Of a stretch of 64,000 nt of DNA, positions 18,713-37,079 are shown piece by piece. The position numbers and the translations under genes were made by a program. Each line of letters begins with the position of its first letter. Position 1 is the first letter of the stretch. This stretch comes from Escherichia coli (GTDB lineage Bacteria > Pseudomonadota > Gammaproteobacteria > Enterobacterales > Enterobacteriaceae): the NCBI RefSeq assembly GCF_030013205.1, contig NZ_CP122648.1, one strand, 5' to 3'. Below the pieces are notes generated by a model. That model was not told the DNA's origin, searched no databases, and saw only the letters and a list, made by a program, of their open reading frames with translations.

Positions 18713-19012
18713 ATGGCGCTTACAAAAGCTGAAATGTCAGAATATCTGTTTGATAAGCTTGGGCTTAGCAAGCGGGATGCCAAAGAACTGGTTGAACTGT
18801 TTTTCGAAGAGATCCGTCGCGCTCTGGAAAACGGCGAACAGGTGAAACTCTCTGGTTTTGGTAACTTCGATCTGCGTGATAAGAATCAACGCCCGGGACG
18901 TAACCCGAAAACGGGCGAGGATATTCCCATTACAGCACGGCGCGTGGTGACCTTCAGACCCGGGCAGAAGTTAAAAAGCCGGGTCGAAAACGCTTCGCCC
19001 AAAGACGAGTAA
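18713..19012 (+). CDS. ihfA: Integration host factor alpha subunit
   Basis: [99 protein letters not shown]. Confidence 0.97.
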
Positions 19013-19025
19013 TCTGATCTAACTA

Positions 19026-19054
19026 AAAAGGCCGCTCTGCGGCCTTTTTTCTTT
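19026..19054 (+). terminator. ihfA terminator hairpin; also the left copy (attL core) of the island-flanking direct repeat
   Basis: aaaaaggccgctctgcggccttttttcttt; the core ggccgctctgcggccttttttcttt recurs near 36016. Confidence 0.75.
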
Positions 19055-19317
19055 CAATAACCGATTGATTTATAATGTTTTATATATCTTCGTTCCACCA
19101 TGTGTCCACATTCAGTGGAGGGAGAGGGGAGTAAGCCCGCTACATTGTGGGCTTTGTCTTATAGTCTGATCACCGTTTCAAGTCAGTAAGGACACCAAAA
19201 AGAAAACCCGCAGTTTTTACGTTGCGGGTTTGTTGTTCATGTCTGTGAGATAGGGTGCCTTATCGACCTTACCCTGGCAACCGATTGACGGGGGATTGCT
19301 CCCCCGTCGCGGTTTCC

Positions 19318-19458
19318 TTACTGCTTACACTGTAAGAACGCCGCAAACTCCGCTCCCCAGAATCTCATCCGTATTTCGCACAGCGAACCGTGCAACATCC
19401 AGATGATGAGGATTGCCGTCACGCAGAACGTGATGGCCGTAAGCGATTTTTGCGACAT
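19318..19458 (-). CDS. Hok/Gef-family type I toxin (46 aa)
   Basis: MSQKSLTAITFCVTAILIIWMLHGSLCEIRMRFWGAEFAAFLQCKQ: single TM helix then SLCEIR..R....E.AAF signature shared by Hok/Gef/HokA; below the ORF-track size cutoff; coordinates hand-derived. Confidence 0.7.
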   Translation of the reverse strand: MSQKSLTAITFCVTAILIIWMLHGSLCEIRMRFWGAEFAAFLQCKQ

Positions 19459-19612
19459 AGCACTTGCTCCTTTTCCGGAGAGGCGCTAACCTTTCACTTG
19501 TCAAGGTAATGCGGTTAGGGCCTCGGTTAAACAGAAACGTTTTCCGGGGCCTTTCCACATCTGGCCTTCGGGTATTCCCTCCGACCATCAGCCGAAAGGC
19601 ACCCGCGCGCAA
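19325..19612 (-). other. mok-like reading frame fully overlapping the hok-like ORF in another frame (probable translational-coupling frame, not an independent protein)
   Basis: 95-aa track ORF ends 7 nt from the hok-like stop and spans it, the architecture of hok/mok loci. Confidence 0.45.
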
Positions 19613-19648
19613 TCTATCTCTTTTTTGTTACTCCGGCAATTCTGCCTG

Positions 19649-19909
19649 TTAATTTTGAGGTAAGGGCAAACTCATCTGATTGTTTCCTTTGTGTGAAGCT
19701 GGCAGTTCATGCCACGGGATACCTTCTGAAGAGTGAGCGCCGGAGGCGTGTTTCGATGTGAATTTATGGAAAGCTTCCAGTGTTGAGAAGCATACACCGC
19801 ATTCTAGGTTGTTACATTGGTAATACTTTTGCCGCACGGTGTTTGAATCATTTTCCGGACGACTGGTGCGGATTCGGGCAGATGCGCCACAAAGCGGACA
19901 ACGGAACAT
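19649..19909 (-). CDS. ogr: Ogr/Delta-family zinc-finger late-gene activator (P2 Ogr-like)
   Basis: MFRCPLCGASARIRTSRPENDSNTVRQKYYQCNNLECGVCFST...: CxxC ... CxxxxC pattern and spacing of P2 Ogr. Confidence 0.8.
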   Translation of the reverse strand: MFRCPLCGASARIRTSRPENDSNTVRQKYYQCNNLECGVCFSTLEAFHKFTSKHASGAHSSEGIPWHELPASHKGNNQMSLPLPQN

Positions 19910-20119
19910 AGCGACCTCCCTTACTGTGGTGCTTCCGCTATTCTAAGTTGTACTGAAACAGATTCCAATTAACAGCTTGTCTTGTGTGAAAAGTGGAAGT
20001 TCACAATTGTGATAGCCATTACTAACGTTGTGATGTATTAGTCAACGGGAAACAAGGCATCTGTAACATATCTATGGATATGTTATATTATTGTTGCCAT
20101 AGGAAAAATCCGCTTTAAA

Positions 20120-20434
20120 GTGGTTGCTGATCATGAATATTTGTATTGGAAGATAATTGCAATGAGCGAAAGAGTGTTTGAGAAAGAACTATATTCTGAA
20201 TGGGTTATACGCAATAGTCTATATTGGATGACTCCGCTTACTCGATGGAAACTCCATGAAGACGTTTCCCACTGGATAATCTCTTTTGAAAACGATAATC
20301 CCAAATTCCTTTATGAATTCGATAGGCTGCTTAATGATTACTCTTTGCGAGAAAAGCTACAGCATAAAACAGGGGCGTTGAGAGACTCTATTGTCCATAA
20401 AGTGCTTCGCAGTGTTGATGAGAGGCTTTCATAA
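20120..20434 (+). CDS. hxsD: His-Xaa-Ser system protein HxsD (LLNDYxLRE-motif protein)
   Basis: 104-aa ORF containing ...FDRLLNDYSLREKLQHK...; stop overlaps hxsB start (TAATG); true start may be the internal ATG near 20162. Confidence 0.7.
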   Translation: MVADHEYLYWKIIAMSERVFEKELYSEWVIRNSLYWMTPLTRWKLHEDVSHWIISFENDNPKFLYEFDRLLNDYSLREKLQHKTGALRDSIVHKVLRSVDERLS

Positions 20435-21822
20435 TGGAATTGATGCCATTTAATTTTGACAGATTGCCTAATGGACAGGTGTTTATAAGCAACCTTGCAG
20501 GTTTTCATCATTTCATTGGTGAGCAAGACCTTATTGATCTTTCTGATGAGCGAATTAGTTCGGAGCAATCAAACGTGCTAGAAAGTAAGCTTTTCATAAC
20601 CAGTGAAAGCTCATCTGCTATAACTCCCTATGCTTTAAGTTCTGCTTTTGCAAAACGATTGATGAATGAACTGGCTGTCAGGCCAATTTTCATGATTGTA
20701 CCCACATTACGTTGTGACCATACATGCAAGTATTGCCAGGTTAGTAGAGCTTCTGTTAATGCCTCAGGTTACGACCTAAATCCTGAGCTCATCCCCGATA
20801 TTATTTCGGCTATTAAAAAACTATCAACGCCACCTTACAAAATAGAGATACAGGGTGGGGAGCCTCTCTTGCGGTTTGATTTAATTCAGAACATCTATGA
20901 TCAATGTGCTGAAACGCTGGGAAGAACCAATTTTGAGATGGTGGTGGCATCAAGTCTGTCTGTCTTGAATGAGGATATGATTGAATGGTCGAGAGACCGG
21001 AACATAACGTTCTCTGTGTCGCTTGATGGTGAGGAAGTTGTTCACAACAGTAATCGAATTCTTGGTCGTGGGCTTGCGTACAGTAGAACAGTGTCAGGGG
21101 TAGAGGCTATCAAACACTCTTTAGGTGCTGGCCGCGTTGCAACGGTTACTACAGTTACTAAAGAGCTTATCAGACGTCCTGAATCGATTGTTCAGGCTCA
21201 CTTGTCTCTTGGGCTCAAGGACATGTTTATCCGACCTGTTAGTCCCTATGGGTTTGCACAAAAAGCTTCTTTCACCTTTTCTATGGACGAATACTTCAGC
21301 TTCTATGCCTCGTTGATAGATGAAATCCTTAAGATTAATAATGAAGGGATAAGGGTTGTGGAACATTCGGCCTCCATTCATCTGAAAAGGATCTTCAATC
21401 CCGGTTTTAGTGGCTATGCGGATTTAAAGTCTCCAAGTGGAGTCGTGCTTAACAGTATTCTTTTCAATTATGACGGTCGAGTATATGGTAGCGATGAGAG
21501 CCGTATGTTGCAGAAGGTGAATCCTGAAACGGAGTTCAGTGCGGGTGAAGTTAAGACGCTATCATTTTCTGATAGTCCTTACTATAACGCAGTATTGACT
21601 TCATCGTTCAATTTTGCTCTGCCAGGTTGTGATACATGTGCATATCAACCATTTTGTGGTTCAGATCCATGCCAGAACATAAGTGTACAGGGTGAGCCTG
21701 TCGGCGATAGGAGTCGTTCAACGTTTTGTCAATATCACAAGGGGATGTTCAGGTATCTGATGAACTGCATCTCAGAGGGTGGTTCGAAGGCTGAGATGCT
21801 AAAAGGATGGGCATATGTCTGA
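20434..21822 (+). CDS. hxsB: Radical SAM / SPASM-type maturase, first of the pair (HxsB-like)
   Basis: 462 aa; CxxxCxxC in ...PTLRCDHTCKYCQVS...; C-terminal Cys cluster ...LPGCDTCAYQPFCGSDPCQNI...; overlaps the neighbouring genes. Confidence 0.8.
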   Translation: MELMPFNFDRLPNGQVFISNLAGFHHFIGEQDLIDLSDERISSEQSNVLESKLFITSESSSAITPYALSSAFAKRLMNELAVRPIFMIVPTLRCDHTCKYCQVSRASVNASGYDLNPELIPDIISAIKKLSTPPYKIEIQGGEPLLRFDLIQNIYDQCAETLGRTNFEMVVASSLSVLNEDMIEWSRDRNITFSVSLDGEEVVHNSNRILGRGLAYSRTVSGVEAIKHSLGAGRVATVTTVTKELIRRPESIVQAHLSLGLKDMFIRPVSPYGFAQKASFTFSMDEYFSFYASLIDEILKINNEGIRVVEHSASIHLKRIFNPGFSGYADLKSPSGVVLNSILFNYDGRVYGSDESRMLQKVNPETEFSAGEVKTLSFSDSPYYNAVLTSSFNFALPGCDTCAYQPFCGSDPCQNISVQGEPVGDRSRSTFCQYHKGMFRYLMNCISEGGSKAEMLKGWAYV

Positions 21823-22927
21823 GGTTATCAGGAACGATATCTTTCATTTTGCTTCTACAGAGAACGTGCCCACGGGGTTCTATCGGTTATGCAAACAAAA
21901 ACCAGTGAACCCTTTATTCTTTTTGCCCAATTTGCTAGTAGTTGCTGAGGGCAATAATGATGCCATTCCACCATGCTTTGATTTCTCTGTTATTAGCACT
22001 GAATTATTTGAGTCAATTGAAGATGGAGATATTGGGATAATCAACAATGGCAATATGATACGCGTTATTCTGTCACGCAAAGCCAACCATAATACTGTCT
22101 TAGTTACGGAACGCTGCAATAACTTGTGTCTGTTTTGTTCGCAGCCACCAAAGAAAATAAATGATGACTGGCTACTTACCCAATCAGCTCTTGCTATAGC
22201 TTCATTTGGCTTGAACGGAGTTGTTGGGGTCAGCGGTGGTGAACCTTTGCTATATGGGGATGACTTCCTTCACTTCATTGATTTTATCATCGAGAATTCA
22301 CCAGATACTGCTTTACATGTTTTAACAAACGGACGCAAATTTGCTGATACCAACTTTACACAGGAAATGGCAAAGCGAAGCAAAAAGATCAAAATCACCT
22401 TTGGTATCCCGCTCTACTCATCAAGACCACTTGTGCATGATCATCTGGTAGGGAGTGATGGCGCATTTAATGAAACGGTTAAAGGGTTAATCAATGCAGG
22501 AAACTTGGGGATTAATATCGAACTTAGAGTTATTCCTACACTGGCTAACTATACCGAATTGGATGATATCGTAGAATTCGCTGGCCGTGTGTTCTCCAAC
22601 ATCAATCAGATTTCCCTTATGGGGTTGGAGCCTATCGGTTGGGCACGAAAAAACTGGTCCACCATCTTCATTGATCACAGTAGTTATAGTGAGAAAATAA
22701 TCTCTGCCATAGACGCTGCATACAGGTCAGGCATACCTCTGACAATTTTTAATTATCCTTTGTGTTATCTTCCTGAAAGGGCTAGGGAGCTTGCTGTTCA
22801 GTCGATCTCTGATTGGAAAAATTACTATCCAAAAGAATGTGATGAATGTACTCAGAAGCCTTCCTGTGCTGGCTATTTCAGTTCCTCAAAAGGCCGTTTT
22901 CATCAATCACCGAGACCAATTTTATGA
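21815..22927 (+). CDS. hxsC: Radical SAM maturase, second of the pair (HxsC-like)
   Basis: 370 aa; CxxxCxxC in ...VTERCNNLCLFCSQP...; C-terminal Cys-rich ...CDECTQKPSCAGYF...; 8-nt overlap with hxsB, ATGA overlap with hxsA. Confidence 0.8.
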   Translation: MSEVIRNDIFHFASTENVPTGFYRLCKQKPVNPLFFLPNLLVVAEGNNDAIPPCFDFSVISTELFESIEDGDIGIINNGNMIRVILSRKANHNTVLVTERCNNLCLFCSQPPKKINDDWLLTQSALAIASFGLNGVVGVSGGEPLLYGDDFLHFIDFIIENSPDTALHVLTNGRKFADTNFTQEMAKRSKKIKITFGIPLYSSRPLVHDHLVGSDGAFNETVKGLINAGNLGINIELRVIPTLANYTELDDIVEFAGRVFSNINQISLMGLEPIGWARKNWSTIFIDHSSYSEKIISAIDAAYRSGIPLTIFNYPLCYLPERARELAVQSISDWKNYYPKECDECTQKPSCAGYFSSSKGRFHQSPRPIL

Positions 22928-23559
22928 AAAAGTTTAATTTTGCTGCTCTACTTCCGGGATTTTTGGCTCTCAACAATTCTGTATGGGCAAGCGATTCATC
23001 TACAGGAGCGAGTGATTTACCTGGTATGACTCTTAATGAGCATGATTTAGTGATAGCTCCACTTAACACGGAAGTCCCATTTTATATCGCAGGGCATCGA
23101 AGCCATAGTTCTCATAGGAGCCATAGCTCTCATAGATCCTCATCAGGTGGTGGATACTATGGTGGAAGTACCCCCTATTATCCAAAAACATACAGCTCAC
23201 CAAGTTCATCTGGTTCTTCAAGTTCAGGTGCAAGTTCCTCATCGTCCTCTTCCTCGGTGCGTGCACTTCGTTCTAACGATAATAATAGAACCACTAACAC
23301 GAGTTCTGTTGGAACTTCAGAGGTTAACCGTACGAGTAATGGGCTTGCTTCTGATGCAGAGAAACGTAAGCGATTGATTATGCGAGTTCAGTTCGCATTG
23401 CTGGACAGGGGATTTTATAACGGAAATATTGACGGCATAATGGGGCCATCCACAAGGCTGTCTGTGAAAAATTACCGCATTGCGAATGGATTACCGATTC
23501 CTGCAACTGAAACACTCGACGCACAATTGTTAAATTCTTTGAATATATTAGCTCGCTAA
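22924..23559 (+). CDS. hxsA: His-Xaa-Ser repeat protein (HxsA-like), secreted, with peptidoglycan-binding-like C-terminal domain
   Basis: From internal ATG of track ORF 22846..23559: MKKFNFAALLPGFLALNNSVWA (signal peptide), HRSHSSHRSHSSHRS (5 HXS repeats), Ser/Gly-rich linker, C-terminal ...RVQFALLDRGFYNGNIDGIMGPSTRLSVKNYRIANGLPIPATETLDAQLL. Confidence 0.8.
   Translation: MKKFNFAALLPGFLALNNSVWASDSSTGASDLPGMTLNEHDLVIAPLNTEVPFYIAGHRSHSSHRSHSSHRSSSGGGYYGGSTPYYPKTYSSPSSSGSSSSGASSSSSSSSVRALRSNDNNRTTNTSSVGTSEVNRTSNGLASDAEKRKRLIMRVQFALLDRGFYNGNIDGIMGPSTRLSVKNYRIANGLPIPATETLDAQLLNSLNILAR
23097..23135 (+). repeat. Short in-frame tandem DNA repeat encoding the His-Xaa-Ser units
   Basis: agccatagttctcatagg / agccatagctctcataga-like 18-nt units; coordinates approximate. 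Confidence 0.6.
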
Positions 23560-23861
23560 ATCTCAGTGAGGTATAAATAAAAAGCAATAAATTATATTAG
23601 TCGCGCGTCCATTATTGGTGGGTAAGTTCAAGGACCGTCTGCTCTGTGTCAGGGGCAGATGGTCAGATAAGACTGTGCCGTTTAGCCCGCTAGTACGTGT
23701 CTGGACTAATACATTTAAGAGTCTCATTCTGCTATCCATTCCGGGATTTTTGCCTCAAGCTCAAGCTGTGTGGTAAAGCCGCTGTTATCAATGGTGTGCT
23801 CGGCTTTTGCAATAATCCAGTCCTGATTATCAATCTCGCTTTTAAATCCTGTTACCGTGCC

Positions 23862-23869
23862 ATGCATTT
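23862..23869. repeat. Target-site duplication (left copy) of the IS66-family element
   Basis: ATGCATTT, repeated at ~26569-26576. Confidence 0.7.
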
Positions 23870-23899
23870 GTAAGCGACTCGTCAGAACCGTATTGATAT

Positions 23900-25471
23900 T
23901 TACTGAGAGCTCAGATCAACTTTCCAGGGCAACAGATCGCGTACCCGGTTTGCCGGCCAGTCCTGGATATGTTCAATGACGTAACGCAGCCACTTTTCTG
24001 GCTCCACATTGTTCAGACGGCATGTGCCGATCAGCGAGTACAACACCGCCGCATGTTCACCACCGCTGTCGGAACCCGCGAACATCCAGTTTTTCCGGCC
24101 TACGGCCACTCCCCGTAAGGCGTTCTCTGCGGTGTTGTTGTCGATTTCCACCCAGCCATTACTGCAGTACACGTTCAGTGCATCCCACTGTTTCAGCAGG
24201 TATGCGAACGCTTTTGCCGTATCTGAGTGACGCGACAGTGTTTTCATCTGTTGCTGTATCCAGTCATACAGTGACTGCATCAGTGGCGCGGCTCTGGCTT
24301 TTCTTGCCGCCAGACGCTGTTCTGCTGAACAGCCCCGGACCTCTGCCTCGATGGCATACAGTTCACCGATACGCTGCAGGGCTTCCGTGGTGATGTAGGT
24401 GGGCGCTCTTGCATGCACATCGTGGATTTTTCTCCGGGCATGAGCCATACACGCGGCTTCCGTTATTCTGCCGGATTCGTATAACGCCCGGTAACCACCG
24501 TAAGCATCGGCCTGAAGCACACCGCTGTAACCGGCCAGGTGATTTTGTGGATGGATACCTTTCCGGTCCGGACTGTACGCGAACCAGACCGCCGGGGGCA
24601 TCTGTGAACCGGCGTTACGGTCATCACGGACGTAGACCCACAGCCGGGCTGTCCGGGTTTTACCGCTGCCCGGCTCCTGGACCGGGACGGGGATATCATC
24701 AGCATGGACTTTACCGGGCATCAGCACATACTGGCGCAGGACGTCATACAGCGGCTCCAGCAGTTCAGCAACAGCACCTGTCCAGCGCCCCAGTGTGGCA
24801 CGGCTCAGCTCCACTCCCTGACGACGGTATATTTCTGACTGGCGGTATAACGGCAGATGGTCTGCATATTTCCCGGTGACAACATGGGCCAGAAGCCCCG
24901 CTCCGGCATAACTGCGTGCAATGGGTTTTGAAGGTACTGGTGCCTGTACGATATGGTCGCACCGGCAACAGGCCTGTTTCGGACGTTGTGTTTCGATAAC
25001 CTTAAAGGCGCTGCTGATAAGCTCCAGTTGCTCTGACACATCACATCCCAGAGAACTGAGTTCACCACCACAGGCAGGACAGCATTCCTCTTCCGGCCGG
25101 ATAACCCGGGTTTCACGGGGAAGTGAGGCCGGTAACGGTTTACGGGCTGAAGACTGGCGCAGGGCGGATGGCAGTACCGGGTCATATTGCTCACCCAGCG
25201 TTTCCGCCATTTCTTCCTGAAGTGCGCTGATTCGCTCCTGTGCTTCCTGTATCTGCCGTTCGGTTTTTGCACGAAGTTTTTCTGAGCTTTTACCGAACTG
25301 CATACGTTGCAGTTTCGCAACCAGCGCCTTCAGCCGGTTGATTTCGGAAGCATAAGCCGCCACCCGCTGTGAGAGCAGGCGGTTGTATTCAGCCATCTGG
25401 CGGATGGTGTCCTGTTGCGTCTGCAACAGTGCCCGCAGGCGGGCGTTCTCATGAGCAAGTGAGGTGTCCAT
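23900..25471 (-). CDS. IS66-family transposase TnpC
   Basis: 523 aa with leucine-zipper-like N-terminus, Cys cluster (CPACGG...CRCDH) and C-terminal ...[23 protein letters not shown]... typical of IS66 TnpC. Confidence 0.85.
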
Positions 25472-25490
25472 ATCCTCACTTTACAACGGG

Positions 25491-25838
25491 TTATATGCGG
25501 ATTCCAGCGCGTTCCGTTCGTTTCGGGTGCTTCCAGTTGATACCTTCAAGAAGCATGGATAACTGAGCCGGAGTAAGGTGCACCTTGCCGTCACGGGTGA
25601 CTGGCCAGACGAAGCGGCCCCGCTCCAGGCGTTTGGTGAAGAGGCACAGTCCGTCACTGTCAGCCCACAACACTTTTATCTGGTCACCCCGGCGTCCGCG
25701 GAAGATGAACAGGTGTCCGGAGAACGGGTCATCCTTCAGGACGTTCTGAACTTTTGATGCCAGGCCGTTAAAGCCATTTCGCATATCGGTGATACCTGCA
25801 ACCAGCCAGATACGCGAACCTGCAGGGAGAGATATCAT
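25491..25838 (-). CDS. IS66-family accessory protein TnpB
   Basis: 115 aa, ...RIWLVAGITDMRNGFNGLASKVQNVL... Confidence 0.8.
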   Translation of the reverse strand: MISLPAGSRIWLVAGITDMRNGFNGLASKVQNVLKDDPFSGHLFIFRGRRGDQIKVLWADSDGLCLFTKRLERGRFVWPVTRDGKVHLTPAQLSMLLEGINWKHPKRTERAGIRI

Positions 25839-26515
25839 CAGTGGCTGCTCCCTTTTATTTCGCGGATAAGTGTCTGTAATAACGCCGGCGTCAGTTTACC
25901 TTTAAGCCTGAGAGTTCCGGCCGGCAGAACCAGCTCACAACACAGACTGTCGGACGGTGTATTTATCTGCTCTGGTTCCTGTGCGGGGGCCGGGATTTTA
26001 TTATCCGGCTCCGGCGTTAACGTCACGGGAAGCAGTGCCGGCATATTTTTTCCGGAAGGCAGCAGGCCACCTTTCCGGTATTGATGGCGCCAGTTGAAGA
26101 GCAGGTTATCGTTGATTCCGTTTTCCCGGGCGATCTGCGCCACACAGGCTCCGGGCTGCAGTGACTGCTCCACTAAGGCGATTTTAAACTCATAAGGGAA
26201 GTTGGGCCGCCGGGGACGTTTTTTTACCACGGGGGCTTCGGATATAACGGTGCTTTCAGGACGTACGACTGGTACCGTGGAAAATTGTCCGTAAAGGCAG
26301 GCATCAAGTTCCTGCTCCGACATGCCTGCGGGCAAAGGCCACGAAAGGCCAGCTCTCCGAAAGCGCACGAACATACTACAAACTGTTGATTTTGGTACAC
26401 CCAGGCGACGCCCGGCCACAACCCGGGGTAAATGTTCTTCAAAGTGAAGACGTAAAGCTTCAGTGATCCAGGTCCGGTGTTTCATACGATAGTGTCCATT
26501 AAAAATGATGGACAT
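25838..26515 (-). CDS. IS66-family accessory protein TnpA (start uncertain; track ORF may be over-extended)
   Basis: ...RPRRPNFPYEFKIALVEQSLQPGACVAQIARENGINDNLLFNWRHQYRKGG... Confidence 0.65.
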   Translation of the reverse strand: MSIIFNGHYRMKHRTWITEALRLHFEEHLPRVVAGRRLGVPKSTVCSMFVRFRRAGLSWPLPAGMSEQELDACLYGQFSTVPVVRPESTVISEAPVVKKRPRRPNFPYEFKIALVEQSLQPGACVAQIARENGINDNLLFNWRHQYRKGGLLPSGKNMPALLPVTLTPEPDNKIPAPAQEPEQINTPSDSLCCELVLPAGTLRLKGKLTPALLQTLIREIKGSSH

Positions 26516-26568
26516 TATTTTTGTAGAGCCGGAGGAAACAGACCAGACGGTTTAAATGAGCCGGTTAC

Positions 26569-26576
26569 ATGCATTT
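26569..26576. repeat. Target-site duplication (right copy) of the IS66-family element
   Basis: ATGCATTT. Confidence 0.7.
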
Positions 26577-27266
26577 CGGGGTAGAGTTCTGCACGCCCAC
26601 GTGCCAGCGTGATGGAAAATGATGCGGCTCCGCGTTGTAGCTGCTGCCACTTTGCCGCCGCTGCGCGTCTTGCTGCCTGCTCGTTCTGATAAGTCTTGCG
26701 TAACACAAACACATTGCCTTCCGCACCTTCCATATAATCACCTTCACGGCTGCTGCTTTTCTCCTTTTTAGGTTTTGGTGGTTTGCGGCGTTTCACACTG
26801 ACTTTTTTCTTTTTCCCGTAATTAAGATCAAGCCAGTAAGCGCGTACCCCCGTATACGCTTCGCGGTCAGCAATGCGGAACTGATGGCGATCGCCGCTGT
26901 TGCGCGTGATGGCGAACGATGGCAACGGCTGGCCCTGTGCGTTCACGCCACCGCCTGGCATGATGAATAACAGATTATCGCTTTTTACCGTGGTGATTGC
27001 GCCCAGCATTTCCGCCATGCGCGTAAGGAAGGACATGTCGCTTTCTTCGGTCTGGTCGGCGTGGTCGATTTCGATATCCATCAGCATTTCGCTGATTTGC
27101 GGTTTCAGGCCGTACCGATGAGCGATGGCGGATACCACACGCTCAACGGTCACATCATGCCAGGACACCTCACGTTTAACGTTAAATTCATCCCGAAAAT
27201 CTGCGCTTCTGGCTGAAACAGTCAGCCTGTCCGGCGGTCCTTCGTGAGCGATTTCATCAACAATTA

Positions 27267-27685
27267 GACTGGCCCCCTGAATCTCCAGACAACCAATATC
27301 ACTTAAATAAGTGATAGTCTTAATACTAGTTTTTAGACTAGTCATTGGAGAGCAGATGATTGATGTCTTAGGACCGGAGAAACGCAGACGGCGTACTACA
27401 CAGGAAAAGATCGCTATTGTTCAGCAGAGTTTTGAACCGGGAATGACGGTCTCCCTTGTTGCCCGGCAACACGGTGTGGCAGCCAGCCAGTTATTTCTCT
27501 GGCGCAAGCAATACCAGGAGGGAAGTCTTACTGCTGTGGCCGCAGGAGAGCAGGTCGTTCCTGCCTCTGAACTTGCTGCTGCCATGAAGCAGATTAAAGA
27601 ACTCCAGCGCCTGCTCGGCAAAAAAACGATGGAAAATGAACTCCTTAAAGAAGCCGTTGAATACGGGCGTGCAAAAAAAGTGGAT
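27267..27685 (+). mobile_element. IS2 left-end fragment (IRL plus 5' part of insC/orfA), truncated near IS2 position ~416
   Basis: TAGACTGGCCCCCTGAATCTCCAGACAACCAATATCACTTAAATAAGTGATAGTCTTAATACTAGTTTTTAGACTAGTCATTGGAG... then Ins[57 protein letters not shown]...[10 protein letters not shown]; homology ends just after the A-run; remainder of IS2 absent. Confidence 0.8.
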
Positions 27686-30247
27686 ACAGTGCTCAGCGAA
27701 AAACAACAAAAGCTGATGCAGCAGTTAAGCACCCGGCTTGAACGCCTGAATGAATCGCGCACACGGGAAATTCAGAAAATGCGGGAGCTTGGCGGAGAGC
27801 TGAAACGCCACGGCATTTCCCTGACAGGCAGCGATAACACCATCCAGCAGGCCATCAGACGCACCGAACAGTACAACAACCAGCTTGAACGCGAACGGCA
27901 GGCGCTTGCGCGTGTAACACGGGCGCGTGAGCGGTATTCGCGCGCGCAGGAAACAGCGGGAAAACTGAAAACAGGTGGTGCGCTGGCAATTGGTGCGGCA
28001 ACGGCGGGCGGCTATGCTGCCGGGCGTTTTTTGCAGCCTGCGATCGGGTTCGGCAAAGAGATGTCCCGCGTTCAGGCACTGACGCGAATCGACAAAAACA
28101 GCCCGCAGTTTAAGGCGCTGCGTGAGCAGGCGTTAAAACTTGGCTCTGAAACACAGTTTACTGCGAGTGATGCCGCCAGTGGGCAGAGCTTTCTGGCAAT
28201 GGCTGGTTTTACTCCGCAGGCCATTCAGGCCGCATTGCCCGGTGTTCTTAATATGGCGCTGGCAGGTGGCGTCGAACTCGGCGAGACGGCTGATATAGGC
28301 TCCAATATCCTCACACAGTTCAACCTGACAGCCGATCAAATGGACCGTGTTGGCGATACGCTGACAGCAGCATTCACCCGGACCAATACTGATTTACGCG
28401 CGCTGGGCGAAACCATGAAGTATACCGGTCCGGTTGCCGCAAAACTTGGTATCAGTCTTGAAGAAGCGGCGGCCATGGCCGGGATGCTTGCCAATAATGG
28501 TCTTCGCGGAAGCGATGCTGGTACGGCCATGCGCGCAAGTCTGTCCCGCCTTGCATCACCGCCAAAAGCTGCGGCTGATGCACTGAAAGAGCTGGGGGTG
28601 TCAGTTGCTGACGCCAGAGGCAAAATGCGCCCGATGGAGGATGTGCTGCTTGATCTCTATAAGGCGACACAAAAATACGGACAGGTGGACCAGGTTTCCT
28701 TCTTCAAGGACATCGCCGGAGAAGAGGCGTTCGTTGGTTTGCAGACGCTTGTTGCGGCGGCTGGTTCAGGAGAGCTGCAAAAACTGACCAGAGAATTGCA
28801 GGGGGCAAGGGGAGAGGCCGATCGCGTCGCAAAAGTAATGGCCGATAATCTTGATGGGGACCTGAAAAATCTCGACAGCGCATGGGAAGGTCTTCGTATT
28901 CGCATCAGTGATCTGGTTGACGGTCCGCTGCGTTCTGTCACGCAGTGGCTCACGCGGGTGCTTGAAAAAATCACCTCGCTGGCGCAGGCCCATCCGGTAC
29001 TGACGCGCCAGCTACTGATAGCAGGCGGTGCGTTGCTGGCAATGACTGCAACGATTGGCTCGTTGTCGCTGGTTATTGGGGTGCTTTACGGGAAGCTGGC
29101 CACCCTGCGTCTTGGTTTTGACATTCTTACCCGGTCAATGAATGTCGTCAGGGTGTTGCCTGCGCTGTGGGGAATGGTGACGGGTTCCGTTTCTTTACTG
29201 GGAGGCGCCATCGGGGCGTTGTTCAGTCCGGTTGGTCTTATCGTGGCTGCGCTTGCCGGAGCTGCCGTTCTTATCTGGAAATACTGGGATCCCATCAGGG
29301 CATTTTTTGCCGGGGTGTTCAGCGGGATTATGGAAAGGCTGACCCCGTTGCGCGAAACCTTTGAACGGTTTGGTCCTGTTTTTGACACAATCGGAAGCGG
29401 GATCAGCCAGGTGTTTAACTGGTTTAAATCGCTGCTGTCACCGATGGAGTCCAGCAAGGAAACGCTGGATAAATGTACCAGTGCTGGCGAGATATTCGGT
29501 AACGTTCTTGGCGGTGCGTTACAGCTTGTTCTGACACCTGCAAAAATGCTACTGGATACGCTGGCGTGGATACTTGAAAAACTTGGCGTCCTTCCGGATG
29601 AAGCGGAAAGGGCGCGCAAGAAAATCGAAGACGCACAGCGTGCGGCCATTCTTCAGGACAAGGTTGCCTTGCTTCAGGGTGACCTGGCGAAAATCAATCC
29701 GCCGAAGCCTGTGGAAAATGGCAATGGCACCGGAGGTAATAAACCCAAAGACAACAAACCGCTCACAGACAGCAATACCGGGACGCTACGCAGACTCAGC
29801 AAAATTGCTGATAACACAGGTAAGCTGGTTGATGAGACGAAAAAACGCATTGGCCCCGGCGATATTGTCTTTAAGAACCTGCCCCGCGCACTTGCTGTTC
29901 GTGGAGAGTGGCAGGAGCGGAAGATTGCGCAGGTCAGTAAGCCTGCCCCCGCAATTAATATCACACCCGTGGTCCCGGCTCCGCTGCCTCCGGCGCTGGT
30001 CCCTGTTGTTGCGGCCAGCTCCCGCCCGGTGGCGGAGGCCATACGATCTCCAGTGGCATCAGTTCCTGTAACTTCCCGTAACCGGGAGCCTGTTGCCTCC
30101 GGATTTGGTGGTGAAATTCATGTTCATCTGCATAACGTTGTTACGCAGAATCCCCGCGAACTGGCGAAACTGGTCGGTGAAATGGTCAGGGCAGAAATGG
30201 AACGGCGCGCCCGTGCCGGGCGTGGCAGTTTTTACGATAAAGATTGA
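27356..30247 (+). CDS. Chimeric ORF: IS2 InsC N-terminal ~110 codons fused in frame to a P2 gpT-like tail tape measure protein
   Basis: Track ORF 27311..30247 (978 aa); after ...EYGRAKK the sequence continues as tape-measure-like (..[71 protein letters not shown]..). Confidence 0.75.
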
Positions 30248-30253
30248 GGAGTC

Positions 30254-30748
30254 ATGGCCATGATGATGATCTACGGCATGTTTGTTTTTGAGCTGCGCAC
30301 GCTGCCGCATCAGCAGTTACAGCAAAACAAAAGCTGGCGGCATGTGAAAAATGAACGCGTTAACCGTTCAGCAAGCTGGCAGTATATCGGTGCAGGTGAT
30401 GATCGCATCGTTCTTTCTGGTATGCTTTATCCTGAAATTACAGGTGGCGAAGTGTCGCTGTCGCTGCTGACCACGCAGGCGTATACAGGACGCCCCTGGC
30501 CTCTTATTGATGGCGTCGGGCAGATTTACGGCATGTATGTCCTGACCGAAACGAATACGACCCGTTCCGAGTTTGATCGCTACGGTAAGGCGAAAAAGAT
30601 AGAATTTTCACTGACCCTTGAACGCTGTGATGAGGATTTGCGGGAGCGCCTGCAATCCTCATCGTTCAGCGATATGCTGTCCGGCTTCAAAGATAAAGTG
30701 ACATCATCCCTTAACAGCGCGGCCAGTTCAGTTAAAGGGCTGTTCTGA
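30254..30748 (+). CDS. P2 gpU-like tail protein
   Basis: MMMIYGMFVFELRTLPHQQLQQNKSWRHVKNERVNRSASWQYIGAGDDRIVLSGMLYPEITGGEVSL... resembles P2 gpU (MMVLGMFVFELRT...). Confidence 0.8.
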   Translation: MAMMMIYGMFVFELRTLPHQQLQQNKSWRHVKNERVNRSASWQYIGAGDDRIVLSGMLYPEITGGEVSLSLLTTQAYTGRPWPLIDGVGQIYGMYVLTETNTTRSEFDRYGKAKKIEFSLTLERCDEDLRERLQSSSFSDMLSGFKDKVTSSLNSAASSVKGLF

Positions 30749-30918
30749 TTTAATGCTGGCCACTCATACCCTCATACCTGGTAATAAGTGGCCAGTCTTA
30801 ACACTCACCATTTGATTGCACCAGTGTTAACGATTTGTTACTGGACATCAGACACGCTGGATAGCCAGTAGAAACATACCATAAAAATTATTACAATAAT
30901 TGGTCACATGATTATCTT

Positions 30919-31482
30919 ATGCTGAATAATAGAGATATGAATATTAATGAACTTAAAGATTGTATTCACTATGAAGTAATCGGTAGCGAGCGTCCTTTCT
31001 CCTGGCGAAAGGCAATTGTTCGCGCAATAAAACATAGAAGAGTTCGTTATTTATTTTGGTGGCGCATAGCCAAATACCTTTTTGATAAAGGCGGATACTG
31101 TCGGAAGATTGCGGGGAAAATAGAACGTTTCATTCTTGATAAATATAATGTAACAGTCCCTTTAACTGTAAATATAGGGAAAGGCTTTGATATTTCTTAT
31201 CTCAACAGTGTTGTTATCGGTCACAAAGTAACAATCGGTGAAAATTGTTCAATAAAACCAGGGGTAACTATTGGGCTGCGTGGTGATTTTAATGATATGG
31301 ATATTGTTATAGGACATAATGTGACCATTGGTTGTAATGCCACCATTCTTGGTGGCAAAGTGCGTATAGGAAACAATGTCACAATAGGTGCTCATGCATT
31401 GGTATTGCATGATATTCCAGATGATTCAACATTCATCACTAAATTTCAGTCTGAAGTTATCTGCTCGTCCTCCCGCACATAA
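30919..31482 (+). CDS. Hexapeptide-repeat (left-handed beta-helix) acetyltransferase, AT-rich cargo gene
   Basis: Repeats of [LIV]-G-x-x-x-x-I-G ([22 protein letters not shown]...[33 protein letters not shown]); low GC; 3' end overlaps tfa 3' end. Confidence 0.75.
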
Positions 31483-32063
31483 CCCTGATTCATCAGCTCT
31501 GGCCATACGATATCCGGAGCTGTACTGGTGTCAATTCTACTCACTAATACTCTGTATTTTCTCCAGGAATCCAGTTGTGAATTTTCCTCGTTTGTTGCTA
31601 TTTCAAGATTAACTGCATCCTGCAGAATTGCGATGTTATCTGTTGCTTCCTGGATCAACCTTGCCTTTTTCTCTTCCGCTTCCCGTATCCGAAACAGTTT
31701 TTCTGCTTCCTCATCCTTCACCCAGGATACGCCGTCCCACTTCTGATACTCCCCTGCTGGCGACAACCAGGTGACATTCTCTGGTAGCGGTCCGGGTTCA
31801 GAAATAAACAACGCGTCCCCCGATGCCACGTCATAGACCGTTTTACCACGATGGTCTTCAACAATATTCCACGATTCATTTTCACTGTTAAAAACTGCCA
31901 CAAAGCCAGCAGGAATTTCCGGTGGGGCGATATCTGTAGAATTGGCTGGCAGCCCTGTATGAGGTGGAATATATGCGTCACCTTCACCAATAAACTCATT
32001 AGTTCCGGCCAGCAGGTTATAAATTTTTACAGTACGTGATTGTTCACTCATTCTGAATGCCAT
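31446..32063 (-). CDS. Tail fibre assembly chaperone (Tfa; P2 gpG-like)
   Basis: 205 aa immediately downstream of, and start/stop-overlapping with, the tail fibre gene; Tfa-like sequence. Confidence 0.75.
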
Positions 32064-33724
32064 TATGCAAGCCTCACAATATAATTAAATGCGATGTTTT
32101 TAACGGTGTTTTCCGCGTTACCAGCAGCGTTAACGGTGATGGTGTGTCCATGTGAACCAATCGCAACAGAGTGCGTATGAGCGCCAATACCAACAGTGTG
32201 TGCATGTGCCCCAGCACTTGTAGCGGTACCTGATACTGAGTGGGTATGTGCGCCAGAAGAAGGCACAGTTCCATTCCCCACCACCGTGCCACTTGATGCA
32301 CCATCAAGCCAGTCGAAATTCATACCTCCACTGTTTGGTCTCCTTAATGGAACGGTATGTGTATGTGCGCCAGCACTATTTGCAGTACCAGATACATTGT
32401 GGGTATGTGCACCAGTGTTATTCGTTGATTTAGTACCGTAATCAAACGACGATGTGGTTTTCGTACCCAAATCCGTACTGGATGCGCTGGCACTGTGGGT
32501 GTGCGATTTAATGCCATCCTGTTCCTGAGACAATACGGCCCGACCACTGGCGGGTTTGCCCTTGATTGTCCAGCCGCGCATATCTGGAATAACACCAGAA
32601 GGATAGGCAATAGCCAGTTTCGGATATGCTGCCTTATCAAACGTCTGCCCCTGCATGATTGCATAACCTGCAGGTGGCGTATCTGATGGCCACGGCAGCG
32701 GAACACCTGGCGGAAACGCTTCAATATTTGCCGAGCCGTCAAATTTTACGCCGTTAATTGTCCTTGCCGTTTTCAGCTTTGTTGCTGTAGCAGCATTGCC
32801 GGATAGTTCGCCAGAAAGACCACCGCTGAATGTCTGTTTCGCCGCCCATGTCTGAGCTTCGTCGATAATTGGCACACGTCTTGTCGTAATCGTGCGGCTT
32901 CCCGGATTTCCTGAAATGCGAACCATAAAAAAGCGGTAATTCGCTTTACTTGCAGTGCTGCGCCATACATGCATTGAGCGCCCCGTACCGAAATCATCAC
33001 TCGGACCAACTGCGATGTTTATCAGGTTGCCATCAATGACGCCCCAGTCCATACCGTCGGGAATATTGGTCATGTTATCAAGCCGAACGGTTATCAGACT
33101 GCCCGGCACAAAATCGTAGGTCTGCCAGTCCAGGCTGGTGAGTTTTGCCACTGCGCCACCGATCCCCATATTCAGGGGCAACGAAAAGGAGTTATACACT
33201 TCTCGCCATTCGGTCCATGTGCTCCCGGCGTAGACGCGCTCAAAAGTGCGCCCCTGTGTGGTTTCTGATTTCCCTGTGGTTGTGTAACGCTGCCAGACAG
33301 ATACACCATCAAAACGCCTGATTACTTCCAGTATCCCAAGCAATGTCGCCCCAGCAGCGTCCAGCATCGGACCGTTTGTCGCCTTTCCTGTAACACTGTA
33401 AATACCGGGGTCGGTTAGAACATTCAAATCACCTTCGTAATAACGGCTCTCTGACTGATGACCGACTCTTAACCACGGTTCCCACTGCGGATTTGATGCA
33501 TCCCAGCTTGCCGCAAGGCAGCGAACGTACATATTCCCACGACGAGTGGTATAACGTTGCGTTCTTCCATAATTCCCGCCTTCGAGGATCTCAAGCGTCC
33601 CCTGAGCAAAGCCGCCTTCCTCTGGATAATTGCGTTCATATGAAGCTATAGCCGAGCTACTGTTACGCCATAAACCAAGATGCTCAGCGGCTCCAAGCGT
33701 ATTCAGGTCTATAGTCGTACTCAA
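32063..33724 (-). CDS. Phage tail fibre protein
   Basis: 553 aa; ...[41 protein letters not shown]... and C-terminal His-rich repeats [38 protein letters not shown]. Confidence 0.8.
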
Positions 33725-34000
33725 AGGGCGGGTAGTTCAAGAAGCTGTTCCGGAGCGTTTGTTGATGATCCCGATCTGCATAAAAATATTCTTATTTGCT
33801 ATCCGTATGGTAACTATGAATATGACAATATTATCTATGTTGAAAAGAAAACTAATGCATTGGGCGTTGTTGTGACGTATGCACAGACTGCACGAGACGA
33901 TGCTGAATAAGATACTACAGAGATAGTCCACTTTTTTGTTTATTTGTCGGGATAAAAACAAATTACCCCGACTCACCATGTATTAATCTTCCGCTTTAAG

Positions 34001-34384: not shown

Positions 34385-34642
34385 TAAGTCGCTCTTCTTG
34401 TTTATGTTCTGAGATGGAGATCAGGGCGAACTCGCCCTGACGTTGTGTTATTCAGGAAATAACGCCCTGATATTTCCGGCCATCTGACTGGTTATCTGTG
34501 CGGTTGGTACTGGCTGTGACAGGGGGCGTTCTGTCCTGGTTTGTGTCACTGATAACGCCTCATCGTCAGCCCATGCAGCCAGTCGGTAAGCCTCTGCCGG
34601 ATTCATTTTCAGAAGTGCCAGCCCGGCCAGAAAAGCCACGCG

Positions 34643-35221
34643 TTGGCCGCTTTTGCGGGCTTCCGGTGTAAGGCTGTCCAGCCAGGCGCATGCTTCGCTT
34701 TCGTTCTTGACGGCCGCAGGCTTCAGATAGAAACTTATCTGAGTAAGTCTGAATGTGTTCAGTTGCTGGATGCACTGGCTGAAAATCCCGATGAACGGCT
34801 GGCTGTCGAAATCCTTCTGTCGACCGGGGCGCGATGGGGCGAGGTAGCGGTACTGGAGCAGCGCCGTGTTCTTCATTGTCGAATCACTTTTTCAAAAACG
34901 AAGAACAGCAAAAACCGTACCGTTCCTATTTCTGAAAGCCTGTTTGAAAAGATCAAAAAACGGGGCGGGAAACTGGTGTTTCCGACGCTGGATTATCCAT
35001 TGGTTCGCGATGTCATCAAAACGGTCGCATCTGATGTTCCTGACGGCCAGGCTGTTCATGCGCTGCGCCACACCTTCGCCAGTCATTTCATGATGAACGG
35101 CGGCAATATTCTGACGCTCCAGAAAATTCTGGGGCACGCAAAGATTCAGACAACGATGATTTATGCCCATCTTGCGCCGGATTACTTGCAGGATGCGGTG
35201 AGATTTAATCCAATAGCTTGA
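34643..35221 (+). pseudogene. int: Tyrosine recombinase (phage integrase) C-terminal catalytic-domain fragment
   Basis: ...LSTGARWGEVA...NRTVPIS...HALRHTFASHFMMNGGNILTLQKILGHAKIQTTMIYAHLAPDYL (R, HxxR, catalytic Y); ~190 codons versus ~330 for full length; N-terminal domain not found in frame. Confidence 0.7.
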
Positions 35222-35231
35222 AGGTAGGAAA

Positions 35232-35615
35232 ATGAAAGATATTGAACATTCAGGGGAAATGGAAAAGAAAAAACGGGAGTTTATTAAAAAACTGGAATCG
35301 ATAACGCCAAGAGAATTCTTCCGTTTTTTAAATGAAAAAAACGTCACTGTGGTTTGCCTTGGGTGCGGACTGAAAGATACCCAGATAACTGCCACTACAG
35401 GTAAGTTAAATCTCCAACAACTCCTGGATGGTGAAAAAGGGGAAGAGTTTATGACGTACTTCAGGCTTGAACCAGGTCACCCAGGTGATAGTGATGCGAA
35501 TTATTACTACAAATCTTTTTGTGAGAACTGCGGTTATATAACTATGCATGCAGTGACTCCGGTATTGAACTGGTTGGGATCGCAAAAAAACCAGGAAGGG
35601 TCAGGTGATGAATGA
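35232..35615 (+). CDS. Hypothetical protein with two CxxC pairs (putative zinc ribbon)
   Basis: 127 aa; ...VVCLGCGLKD... and ...FCENCGYITMH...; start preceded by aggtaggaaaATG. Confidence 0.45.
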   Translation: MKDIEHSGEMEKKKREFIKKLESITPREFFRFLNEKNVTVVCLGCGLKDTQITATTGKLNLQQLLDGEKGEEFMTYFRLEPGHPGDSDANYYYKSFCENCGYITMHAVTPVLNWLGSQKNQEGSGDE

Positions 35616-35907
35616 GTATACTTATATCACGGGTTTTTCCATTCCGTATCCAGGAGGAATTCAGGTGAGCAATCGCAGAAGTCAGGCAAGTCGTGATGAG
35701 TTCGCTCTTGATAGCCGTGTTGCACGAATGGAGTCTGATATCTCATACATCAAGAGAGATATTGAAGAGCTGAAGAGCGATCTCAAGGATGTGAGAGGCG
35801 ATATTGATAAGATACGCACAACAGATTTCAGGCTCATGTTTGGTGCGTTGATTACTACAGCCTTGGGGTTAGCTGGCTTAATGGCGAGAGGTTTTCACTG
35901 GATTTAA
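35605..35907 (+). CDS. Hypothetical coiled-coil protein with C-terminal transmembrane helix
   Basis: 100 aa; ...ESDISYIKRDIEELKSDLKDVRGDIDKIRTTDFRLMFGALITTALGLAGLMARGF; overlaps previous ORF by 11 nt. Confidence 0.45.
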   Translation: MMNEYTYITGFSIPYPGGIQVSNRRSQASRDEFALDSRVARMESDISYIKRDIEELKSDLKDVRGDIDKIRTTDFRLMFGALITTALGLAGLMARGFHWI

Positions 35908-36015: not shown

Positions 36016-36040
36016 GGCCGCTCTGCGGCCTTTTTTCTTT
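36016..36040 (+). repeat. Right copy (attR core) of the island-flanking direct repeat; doubles as the terminator-like hairpin upstream of btuC
   Basis: ggccgctctgcggccttttttcttt, identical to ~19030-19054. Confidence 0.75.
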
Positions 36041-36098: not shown

Positions 36099-37079
36099 AT
36101 GCTGACACTTGCCCGCCAACAACAGCGACAAAATATTCGCTGGTTATTATGCCTGTCAGTTTTGATGCTGCTGGCGCTTCTCTTAAGCCTTTGCGCCGGT
36201 GAACAATGGATCTCGCCAGGTGACTGGTTTTCTCCTCGAGGCGAACTGTTCGTCTGGCAGATTCGCCTGCCACGTACGCTGGCTGTATTGCTGGTTGGTG
36301 CGGCGTTGGCTATATCCGGCGCTGTAATGCAGGCGTTATTTGAAAATCCTCTGGCAGAACCTGGACTACTTGGCGTCTCTAATGGCGCAGGCGTGGGGCT
36401 TATCGCCGCGGTATTGCTTGGGCAAGGGCAACTCCCCAACTGGGCGCTGGGGCTGTGTGCGATTGCTGGCGCGCTTATCATCACTTTAATACTCTTACGT
36501 TTCGCCCGTCGTCATCTTTCGACCAGTCGGTTATTGCTGGCTGGCGTTGCATTAGGGATTATCTGTAGCGCACTAATGACGTGGGCTATCTACTTTTCCA
36601 CCTCTGTTGATTTACGTCAGCTGATGTACTGGATGATGGGCGGTTTTGGCGGCGTAGACTGGCGGCAAAGCTGGCTGATGCTGGCATTGATCCCCGTGTT
36701 GTTGTGGATCTGTTGTCAGTCCAGACCGATGAATATGTTAGCACTTGGCGAGATCTCGGCGCGGCAACTGGGTTTACCCCTGTGGTTCTGGCGCAATGTG
36801 CTGGTGGCAGCGACCGGCTGGATGGTTGGCGTCAGTGTGGCGTTGGCGGGTGCTATCGGCTTTATTGGTCTGGTGATCCCACATATTCTCCGGTTATGTG
36901 GTTTGACCGATCATCGCGTATTACTTCCCGGCTGCGCGCTGGCAGGGGCGAGCGCATTGCTGCTGGCCGATGTTGTAGCGCGCCTGGCATTAGCTGCTGC
37001 AGAGCTGCCTATTGGCGTGGTCACCGCAACGTTGGGTGCGCCGGTGTTTATCTGGTTATTGTTAAAAGCAGGACGTTAG
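36099..37079 (+). CDS. btuC: Vitamin B12 ABC transporter permease
   Basis: 326 aa, [44 protein letters not shown]... Confidence 0.95.

Follow-up and report, generated by a model that had tools for sequence, protein, structure and literature searches.

The ogr-like gene at 19649-19909 (minus strand) of a 64,000-nt stretch of Escherichia coli contig NZ_CP122648.1, hereafter the window, is best read, with a probability of roughly 0.8, as the ogr orthologue of a recently decayed P88-like prophage at the ihfA terminator, now an orphan that would be surviving passively beside an hxsDBCA operon that is not its target. In the history that we propose, a P88-like prophage of the P2 family (Peduoviridae, Xuanwuvirus/Gemsvirus type) would have integrated into the ihfA terminator, with a native right end ordered D, variable cargo slot, ogr, hok/sok, attR. 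Insertion of ISCro1 and IS-associated deletions would then recently have reduced it to a 17-kb remnant, removing capsid, lysis, baseplate, replication and immunity genes along with both recognisable late-promoter regions, and ogr would have been left intact, probably transcribable, and with no target in cis. The features of the island, in window coordinates, are the following.

19030-19054: attR core, a 25-bp repeat (GGCCGCTCTGCGGCCTTTTTTCTTT) that is the ihfA terminator (longest exact repeat between the island ends)
19318-19458, minus strand: hok/gef-family type I toxin ORF, 46 aa (Pfam HOK_GEF 7.7e-8; NCBIfam HokA 4.7e-9, below cut-off)
19445-19604, minus strand: hok mRNA leader / sok-like antitoxin RNA (Rfam RF01794 sok, 47.3 bits against a gathering score of 59, E=4e-9)
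19649-19909, minus strand: ogr, an 86-aa Ogr/Delta zinc-finger late-gene activator, intact
19940-19968, minus strand: predicted sigma-70 promoter of ogr, TTGGAA-17 nt-TAGAAT (promoter scan; consensus match)
20063-20091, plus strand: predicted hxs promoter, GTAACA-17 nt-TATTAT (scan), inside about 100 bp conserved with hxs cassettes elsewhere
20162-23559, plus strand: hxsD-hxsB-hxsC-hxsA, the HXS anti-phage system, between D and ogr (NCBIfam equivalogs, RefSeq)
23727-23869, minus strand: 3' end of tail gene D (VgrG/Pvc8 family), cut by an IS (blastn to P88 D, 98.6%)
23870-26567, minus strand: IS66-family element ISCro1 (tnpA, tnpB, transposase) in D (RefSeq and blastn)
26568-27264, minus strand: middle part of D (blastn; window 27264 = H22 25558)
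27265-27686, plus strand: IS/transposase fragment replacing the deleted segment (RefSeq 'transposase, incomplete')
27687-30753, plus strand: truncated tape-measure gene T, then tail gene U (RefSeq, blastn, phrog_76 tail protein; 27687 = H22 28509)
31446-33724, minus strand: tail-fibre assembly gene G and the C-terminal part of tail-fibre gene H (RefSeq, PHROG)
34448-35221: early-region leftovers, a partition gene (minus strand) and a C-terminal tyrosine integrase fragment (plus strand) (RefSeq, blastn, PHROG)
36016-36040: attL core, the second copy of the 25-bp repeat GGCCGCTCTGCGGCCTTTTTTCTTT (same repeat search)

The ogr ORF, 86 codons long in the ORF list of the window, begins with ATG, 6 nt downstream of a Shine-Dalgarno sequence (AAGGGAGG) graded as strong. 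Its product belongs to the Ogr/Delta family, matching Pfam Ogr_Delta (PF04606) over residues 3-49 at E=5.4e-14 and 52.3 bits (cut-off 26.3), and PHROG 603, 'transcriptional regulator', at 3.6e-15. The best NCBIfam match is the P2-Ogr model (NF007241 / PRK09678) with 43.4 bits against a cut-off of 116; by that model the protein is a family member and not a P2-Ogr/OgrK equivalog. RefSeq names it 'ogr/Delta-like zinc finger family protein' (WP_001781539.1) in the swine E. coli strain K_EC180, whose chromosome is essentially identical to the window. Cysteines C4, C7, C32 and C37 align with C4, C7, C30 and C35 of P2 Ogr, in the CX2C...CX4C arrangement described for the zinc ligands of the Ogr/Delta family (PMC3931495). 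The original prediction of an intact zinc-finger late activator is upheld by the Pfam match and these four aligned cysteines, none of which has been lost.

P2 Ogr, 186 B and P4 delta are known to bind zinc and DNA and to activate transcription by way of the RNA polymerase alpha subunit, according to work cited in PMC3931495, and the family mechanism, recognition of a dyad at about -55 with contact to the alpha subunit, is established (summarised in PMC3931495 and PMC8628076). By analogy, the window protein would bind zinc and DNA and activate transcription in the same manner. With 186 B, P4 delta and PSP3 Pag it shares family-level homology (PF04606) and presumably also the dyad at about -55 and the alpha contact. 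P4 delta differs in being a tandem domain duplication borne by a satellite, whereas the window Ogr is single-domain and lies in helper-phage synteny.

The closest relatives are the products of same-position ORFs in P88, 500465-2, Chuche, PhiR44_2 and Shae_phiSM (96.5-97.7% identity). Residues 1-53 are invariant in five aligned P88-like alleles, and the private substitutions of the window protein, V58A and R74K, fall in the variable C-terminal tail. In P88, genes FI, FII, E, T and U lie on one strand, and D, ogr (43 bp past D) and hok on the other, followed by attP and int; the P88 record leaves this ogr ORF without annotation. P2 has the order D, annotated ogr promoter, ogr, terminator, attP. 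The D-ogr-att synteny is thus common to P88, 500465-2, H22 and P2, and the window retains it as D fragments, cargo, ogr, hok and attR. P88 and its relatives (Peduoviridae: Xuanwuvirus, Gemsvirus) also share with the window the 86-aa length of the protein, the position of its gene after D and before hok and the attachment site, and the same Shine-Dalgarno and -10 region at ogr. The differences are that the window phage is a remnant without late promoters, and that the hxs operon fills a D-ogr gap that in P88 measures 43-45 bp.

Likeness to P2 is looser. P2 Ogr has the same Pfam family, the four zinc cysteines, the D-ogr-att synteny and an ogr promoter of its own in the D-ogr gap, but identity is 38%, the window spacing is CX2C-X24-CX4C as against X22 in P2, and the C-terminal tail of the window protein is 14 aa longer. 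The cognate dyad that we infer for P88-type Ogr would be TCT-N12-ACA, as against TGT-N12-ACA for P2. A parallel in circumstance is OgrK of the K-12 cryptic prophage PR-X, likewise a remnant with an intact ogr beside a D pseudogene; in the K-12 annotation PR-X consists only of ogrK and that pseudogene, and is a smaller remnant than the one in the window. The ogr genes of K-12 and B are reportedly functional.

On its other side ogr adjoins the hok-like locus, as the original prediction had it: the Hok/Gef ORF and the sok-like RNA both lie just beyond the ogr stop codon on the same strand. The hok gene adjoins ogr in P88 and 500465-2 as well, which marks it as a native gene of P88-like phages. 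Since the order is the same in P88 and the right end of P2 is analogous, ogr and hok/sok are both native right-end genes of the P88-like phage type.

The island lies among host genes, thrS-infC-rplT-pheST-ihfA on one side and btuCED on the other, with ihfA ending at 19012 and btuC starting at 36099. From 19000 to 23869 the window is collinear with strain H22 at 99.84% identity over 4870 bp (blastn). H22 carries the same insertion as a near-complete prophage that encodes the same Ogr protein accession. ISCro1 is flanked on both sides by about 9 bp of H22 sequence, as a target duplication, and past 27264 a deletion has removed the 5' end of D together with the PD/PF late-promoter region, genes FI, FII and E, and the first part of T. 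The segment in its place, 27265-27686, has no blastn match to H22 or P88. Of the late genes only U and G survive, along with a disrupted D, a truncated T and the C-terminal end of H, and RefSeq annotation and PHROG show the island to be without capsid, terminase, lysis, baseplate, replication, C and cox genes. That most late genes are gone, as originally proposed, is therefore borne out.

Two other stretches of the island depart from P88. Just 3' of U lies a 187-aa 'transferase' (30919-31482, plus strand; phrog_2154) that may be another cargo gene; at this place P88 has a DNA invertase gene and an invertible tail-fibre segment. Between the integrase fragment and attL, small ORFs of 127 and 100 aa (35232-35907, plus strand; phrog_4293 and phrog_3556/20262) occupy a position at which P88 has nothing.

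The dyads expected of Ogr-controlled late promoters were sought in the island and upstream of hxs, as the original prediction had suggested. The exact pattern TGT-N12-ACA misses the late promoters of P88 itself, and was replaced by a P88-derived one, GTTCT-N12-ACAAC. This sequence, which departs from the P2 consensus by one mismatch, is kept in P88 as GTTCT-N12-ACAAC(AAAA) between P and O and between FI and D, and recurs at the matching P/O and FI/D sites of H22; the P/O dyad is found also in 500465-2 and the FI/D dyad also in an O145 prophage. The intact relatives P88 and H22 therefore have dyads of the TGT-N12-ACA type with one mismatch, and no exact TGT-N12-ACA at those sites. As this P88-type consensus is drawn from two conserved sites, divergent or degenerate Ogr sites could escape it.

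Both dyad-bearing regions, P/O and FI/D, are absent from the window by the blastn map, and the dyad at 25886-25907 of H22 is missing with them. Exact TGT-N12-ACA occurs four times in the 17-kb island, against about four expected by chance: in the IS66 element, in the 'transferase' gene, in the tail-fibre gene and at 33868, none of them near hxs. GTTCT-N12-ACAAC has one match in the island when one mismatch is tolerated (0.6 expected by shuffling) and eight when two are (7.7 expected). Between ogr and hxs (19900-20170) there is no TGT-N12-ACA with up to one mismatch, no P88-type GTTCT-N12-ACAAC, and no N12 dyad with up to two mismatches to the 10 specified bases of GTTGT-N12-ACAAC. The suggested search thus yields nothing upstream of hxs and counts at the level of chance in the island, and the Ogr of the window is an orphan with no cognate target left in cis.

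The sole match with one mismatch (34442-34463) lies at the 3' end of the partition (par) gene and is found also in P88 (10116-10137 of locus L003), where it sits about 68 bp upstream of gp19; it may represent either a late promoter so far overlooked or a hairpin.

Across relatives, the interval between D and ogr, which is 19910-23726 in the window, is a variable cargo slot of P88-like phages that holds several known defence systems. The sample comprised E. coli genomes together with 79 IMG/VR contigs whose Ogr is at least 97% identical. The gap is 45 bp in 34 of these contigs and holds 1.0-3.8 kb of cargo in the other 45; the cargo is of at least 17 unrelated types, in both orientations. Recognisable cargo includes HXS, Shedu SduA and a PifA-like KAP NTPase, with a GmrSD_N+HNH protein, two PIN-domain proteins, a HEPN-like protein and DUF2971 among further types; strain CT30 carries a SIR2 protein and an ATPase here. 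P2-like phages have comparable hotspots at gpA-gpQ (old/tin) and Z/fun, which hold interchangeable anti-phage cargo with its own promoters (PMC9122126, PMC9519451). The D-ogr gap resembles these in being a fixed slot for swappable cargo between conserved phage genes, and differs in lying at the right end, between D and ogr, a location that those two papers do not name. It could be mined for cargo in the way that the published P2 hotspots have been.

The same loci suggest how ogr may be transcribed. Within the roughly 65 bp that precede the ogr ATG, the IMG/VR loci keep the hexamers TTGGAr and TAGAAT or TAAAAT, separated by a 17-nt spacer of variable sequence, across 17 cargo types. Such constancy of the hexamers around a changing spacer is what a working promoter would be expected to show, and ogr is probably transcribable from this conserved sigma-70-type promoter of its own.

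Two further patterns near this promoter were set aside. GTTGG-N13-ACAAC upstream of ogr is over-represented (8 seen, 1 expected), but it is the ogr core promoter itself, from the -35 hexamer through the spacer, which might also serve as an operator. A TGTGA-N11-TCACA dyad upstream of the promoter is not conserved in the homologous region of 500465-2. An apparent duplication of the 3' end of ogr upstream of the gene (19982-20004 against 19689-19709) scored 23 against 15 ± 2.3, a score reached by 5 of 500 shuffles, and was judged too weak.

The original prediction presented the intact persistence of ogr as noteworthy. At the 0.16% divergence from H22, about 0.4 substitutions are expected in 261 bp, and because the region is 99.84% identical to H22, with the same Ogr protein, an intact ORF of this length is expected without selection; recency suffices. 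Survival would then be passive, favoured by recent decay, by the small size of the target and by a seat between the hok/sok addiction module and a useful defence operon, although the data fit weak selection of ogr as well as passive retention. If Ogr is made, its sole plausible activity would be in trans, at late promoters of co-resident or incoming P88/P2-like phages or of P4-like satellites, as the family mechanism described above would allow. The idea that it responds to superinfecting phages needs rewording in these terms: Ogr is an activator and not a sensor, and possible trans-activation, with ogrK of K-12 as precedent, describes its potential better. An orphan ogr of this kind is already known. 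It is an ordinary, correctly annotated and very common phage regulator (similar ogr DNA is found in 1210 of 5426 complete E. coli genomes), has the K-12 precedent, and as a finding in itself matters little.

Among other accounts of its retention, the one that fares best, though we consider it unlikely, is that ogr is kept by selection as a trans-acting factor, for helping co-resident P88-like prophages or P4-like satellites, or for harming incoming P2-like phages through untimely expression of their late (lysis) genes. A 501-bp query (19560-20060) that takes in ogr and flanking sequence hits the near-identical K_EC180 genome at three places, so targets may co-reside; the ogr promoter is conserved, and K-12 too keeps its ogrK. 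Against this, there is no sign of selection beyond what recency explains, co-resident phages would have an ogr of their own, and IS elements also strike hxs in sister strains, which suggests a region in decay and not one being maintained.

It is more doubtful that ogr is a silent relic, intact by chance, with no meaningful expression here and no activity. The same expectation of about 0.4 substitutions accords with that account, as does the loss of all targets in cis, and ogr no longer lies behind the late D promoter, from which it probably receives extra transcription in intact phages. The conserved TTGGAA-17-TAGAAT promoter and the strong Shine-Dalgarno sequence are kept, however, and with the immunity repressor gene missing nothing encoded in the island would repress ogr.

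Very improbable, in our estimation, is a three-part survival module of hok/sok, ogr and HXS, with Ogr acting in trans as a decoy-type defence or as a satellite helper. If it existed, Ogr made from its own promoter in the absence of a phage repressor would switch on late and lysis promoters of incoming P88/P2-like phages too early or, alternatively, would wake P4-like satellites.

We return to the preferred reading, in which the neighbouring operon is independent of Ogr. All four hxs genes exceed their NCBIfam cut-offs (hxsD, TIGR03976, 90.6 bits against 50; hxsB, TIGR03978, 558 against 370; hxsC, TIGR03977, 398 against 268; hxsA, TIGR03979, 159 against 122) and stand in the D-B-C-A order of the HXS system in PMC13128918. 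HXS, an anti-phage system published in 2026, prevents phage DNA from entering the cell; the cloned operon came from an E. coli strain and protects E. coli MG1655 (PMC13128918). The 2023 release of PADLOC, which holds no HXS model, gave weak viperin-type radical-SAM matches to these genes, and the function assigned here is that of PMC13128918. The operon and ogr are divergent, as first noted, with 252 bp between ogr and hxsD.

About 100 bp upstream of hxsD, from GTAACAT at 20063, is kept across unrelated hxs contexts, and homology ends just upstream of it. The operon is present in 151 complete E. coli genomes, of which 45 have it at 99% identity or more, all at the ihfA locus beside ogr, and the remaining 106 carry other variants (91% and 75%). 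In the three genomes inspected, these other variants are borne by integrative islands, ssrA-type or otherwise, that have relaxases but lack ogr. Since the upstream 100 bp is kept in islands without ogr, hxs brings its own promoter. The operon has no N12 dyad at about -55, the mark of an Ogr-controlled late operon. It follows that hxsDBCA is independent defence cargo and not a target of Ogr, and that their adjacency is positional; the proposal that Ogr could activate neighbouring cargo is not supported, given the missing dyad, an hxs promoter region kept where there is no ogr, and the activity of HXS in MG1655 (PMC13128918). HXS is thus the cargo of a P88-like prophage or remnant in 45 of the 151 hxs-positive complete genomes, and the prophage-borne share of HXS systems in E. 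coli is explained by the D-ogr slot. Prophage predictors can miss P88-like remnants that carry it.

One element in the intergenic region does resemble an Ogr site. GTTGT-N10-TCAAC at 20027-20046 has Ogr-like half-sites with a spacer of 10 nt and not 12, at marginal significance given that five spacings were tested; its centre lies some 60 bp upstream of where hxs transcription is predicted to start, and it sits at the junction just outside the conserved hxs cassette, and is not kept in the other hxs loci compared. Modulation of hxs by Ogr through this element would be a weaker variant of the survival-module idea. That the orphan Ogr has been domesticated, switching on hxs or other island cargo, for example upon infection by a P2-like phage, is hardly credible: divergent neighbours 252 bp apart and an imperfect dyad at a suggestive distance speak for it, but all known and inferred Ogr sites have N12 spacing, no N12 dyad appears in the intergenic region even with mismatches, the hxs promoter region is kept in ssrA-type islands without ogr, HXS cloned without ogr works in MG1655 (PMC13128918), and the variety and both orientations of cargo in the D-ogr slot mark the adjacency as positional.

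The predicted hxs promoter is overlapped by a perfect inverted repeat, TAACATAT-N6-ATATGTTA, at 20064-20085. Its TAACA...TGTTA core is partly kept in other hxs cassettes, and may be an operator for an HXS regulator. In several sister strains IS2 or ISVsa5 lies inside the stretch from ihfA to hxsA, and in one ISVsa5 splits hxsC; from these insertions, the defence cargo is itself decaying in part of the lineage.

We also note some peculiarities at and beyond the right end. (i) Relatives have a second variable slot between hok and the attachment site (L008 4327-4623; L010, the O145 prophage, 3589-4522; L004 24449-25679). Its contents there are a TM2-domain protein, a Com regulator with a DNA methyltransferase, and a zinc-ribbon protein with a TagO-like protein; the window has nothing in this slot. 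(ii) An Rfam match to the sRNA STnc540 at 18954-19110 (41.9 bits against a gathering score of 38) spans the 3' end of ihfA and its terminator. It covers the attachment core, so that phage integration duplicates part of the sRNA locus. (iii) Between yniD and thrS, a 632-aa ORF (9418-11316, minus strand) goes by the name EspL1, a type III secretion effector, in the annotation of the identical genome, and H22 has only a frameshifted fragment at this site.
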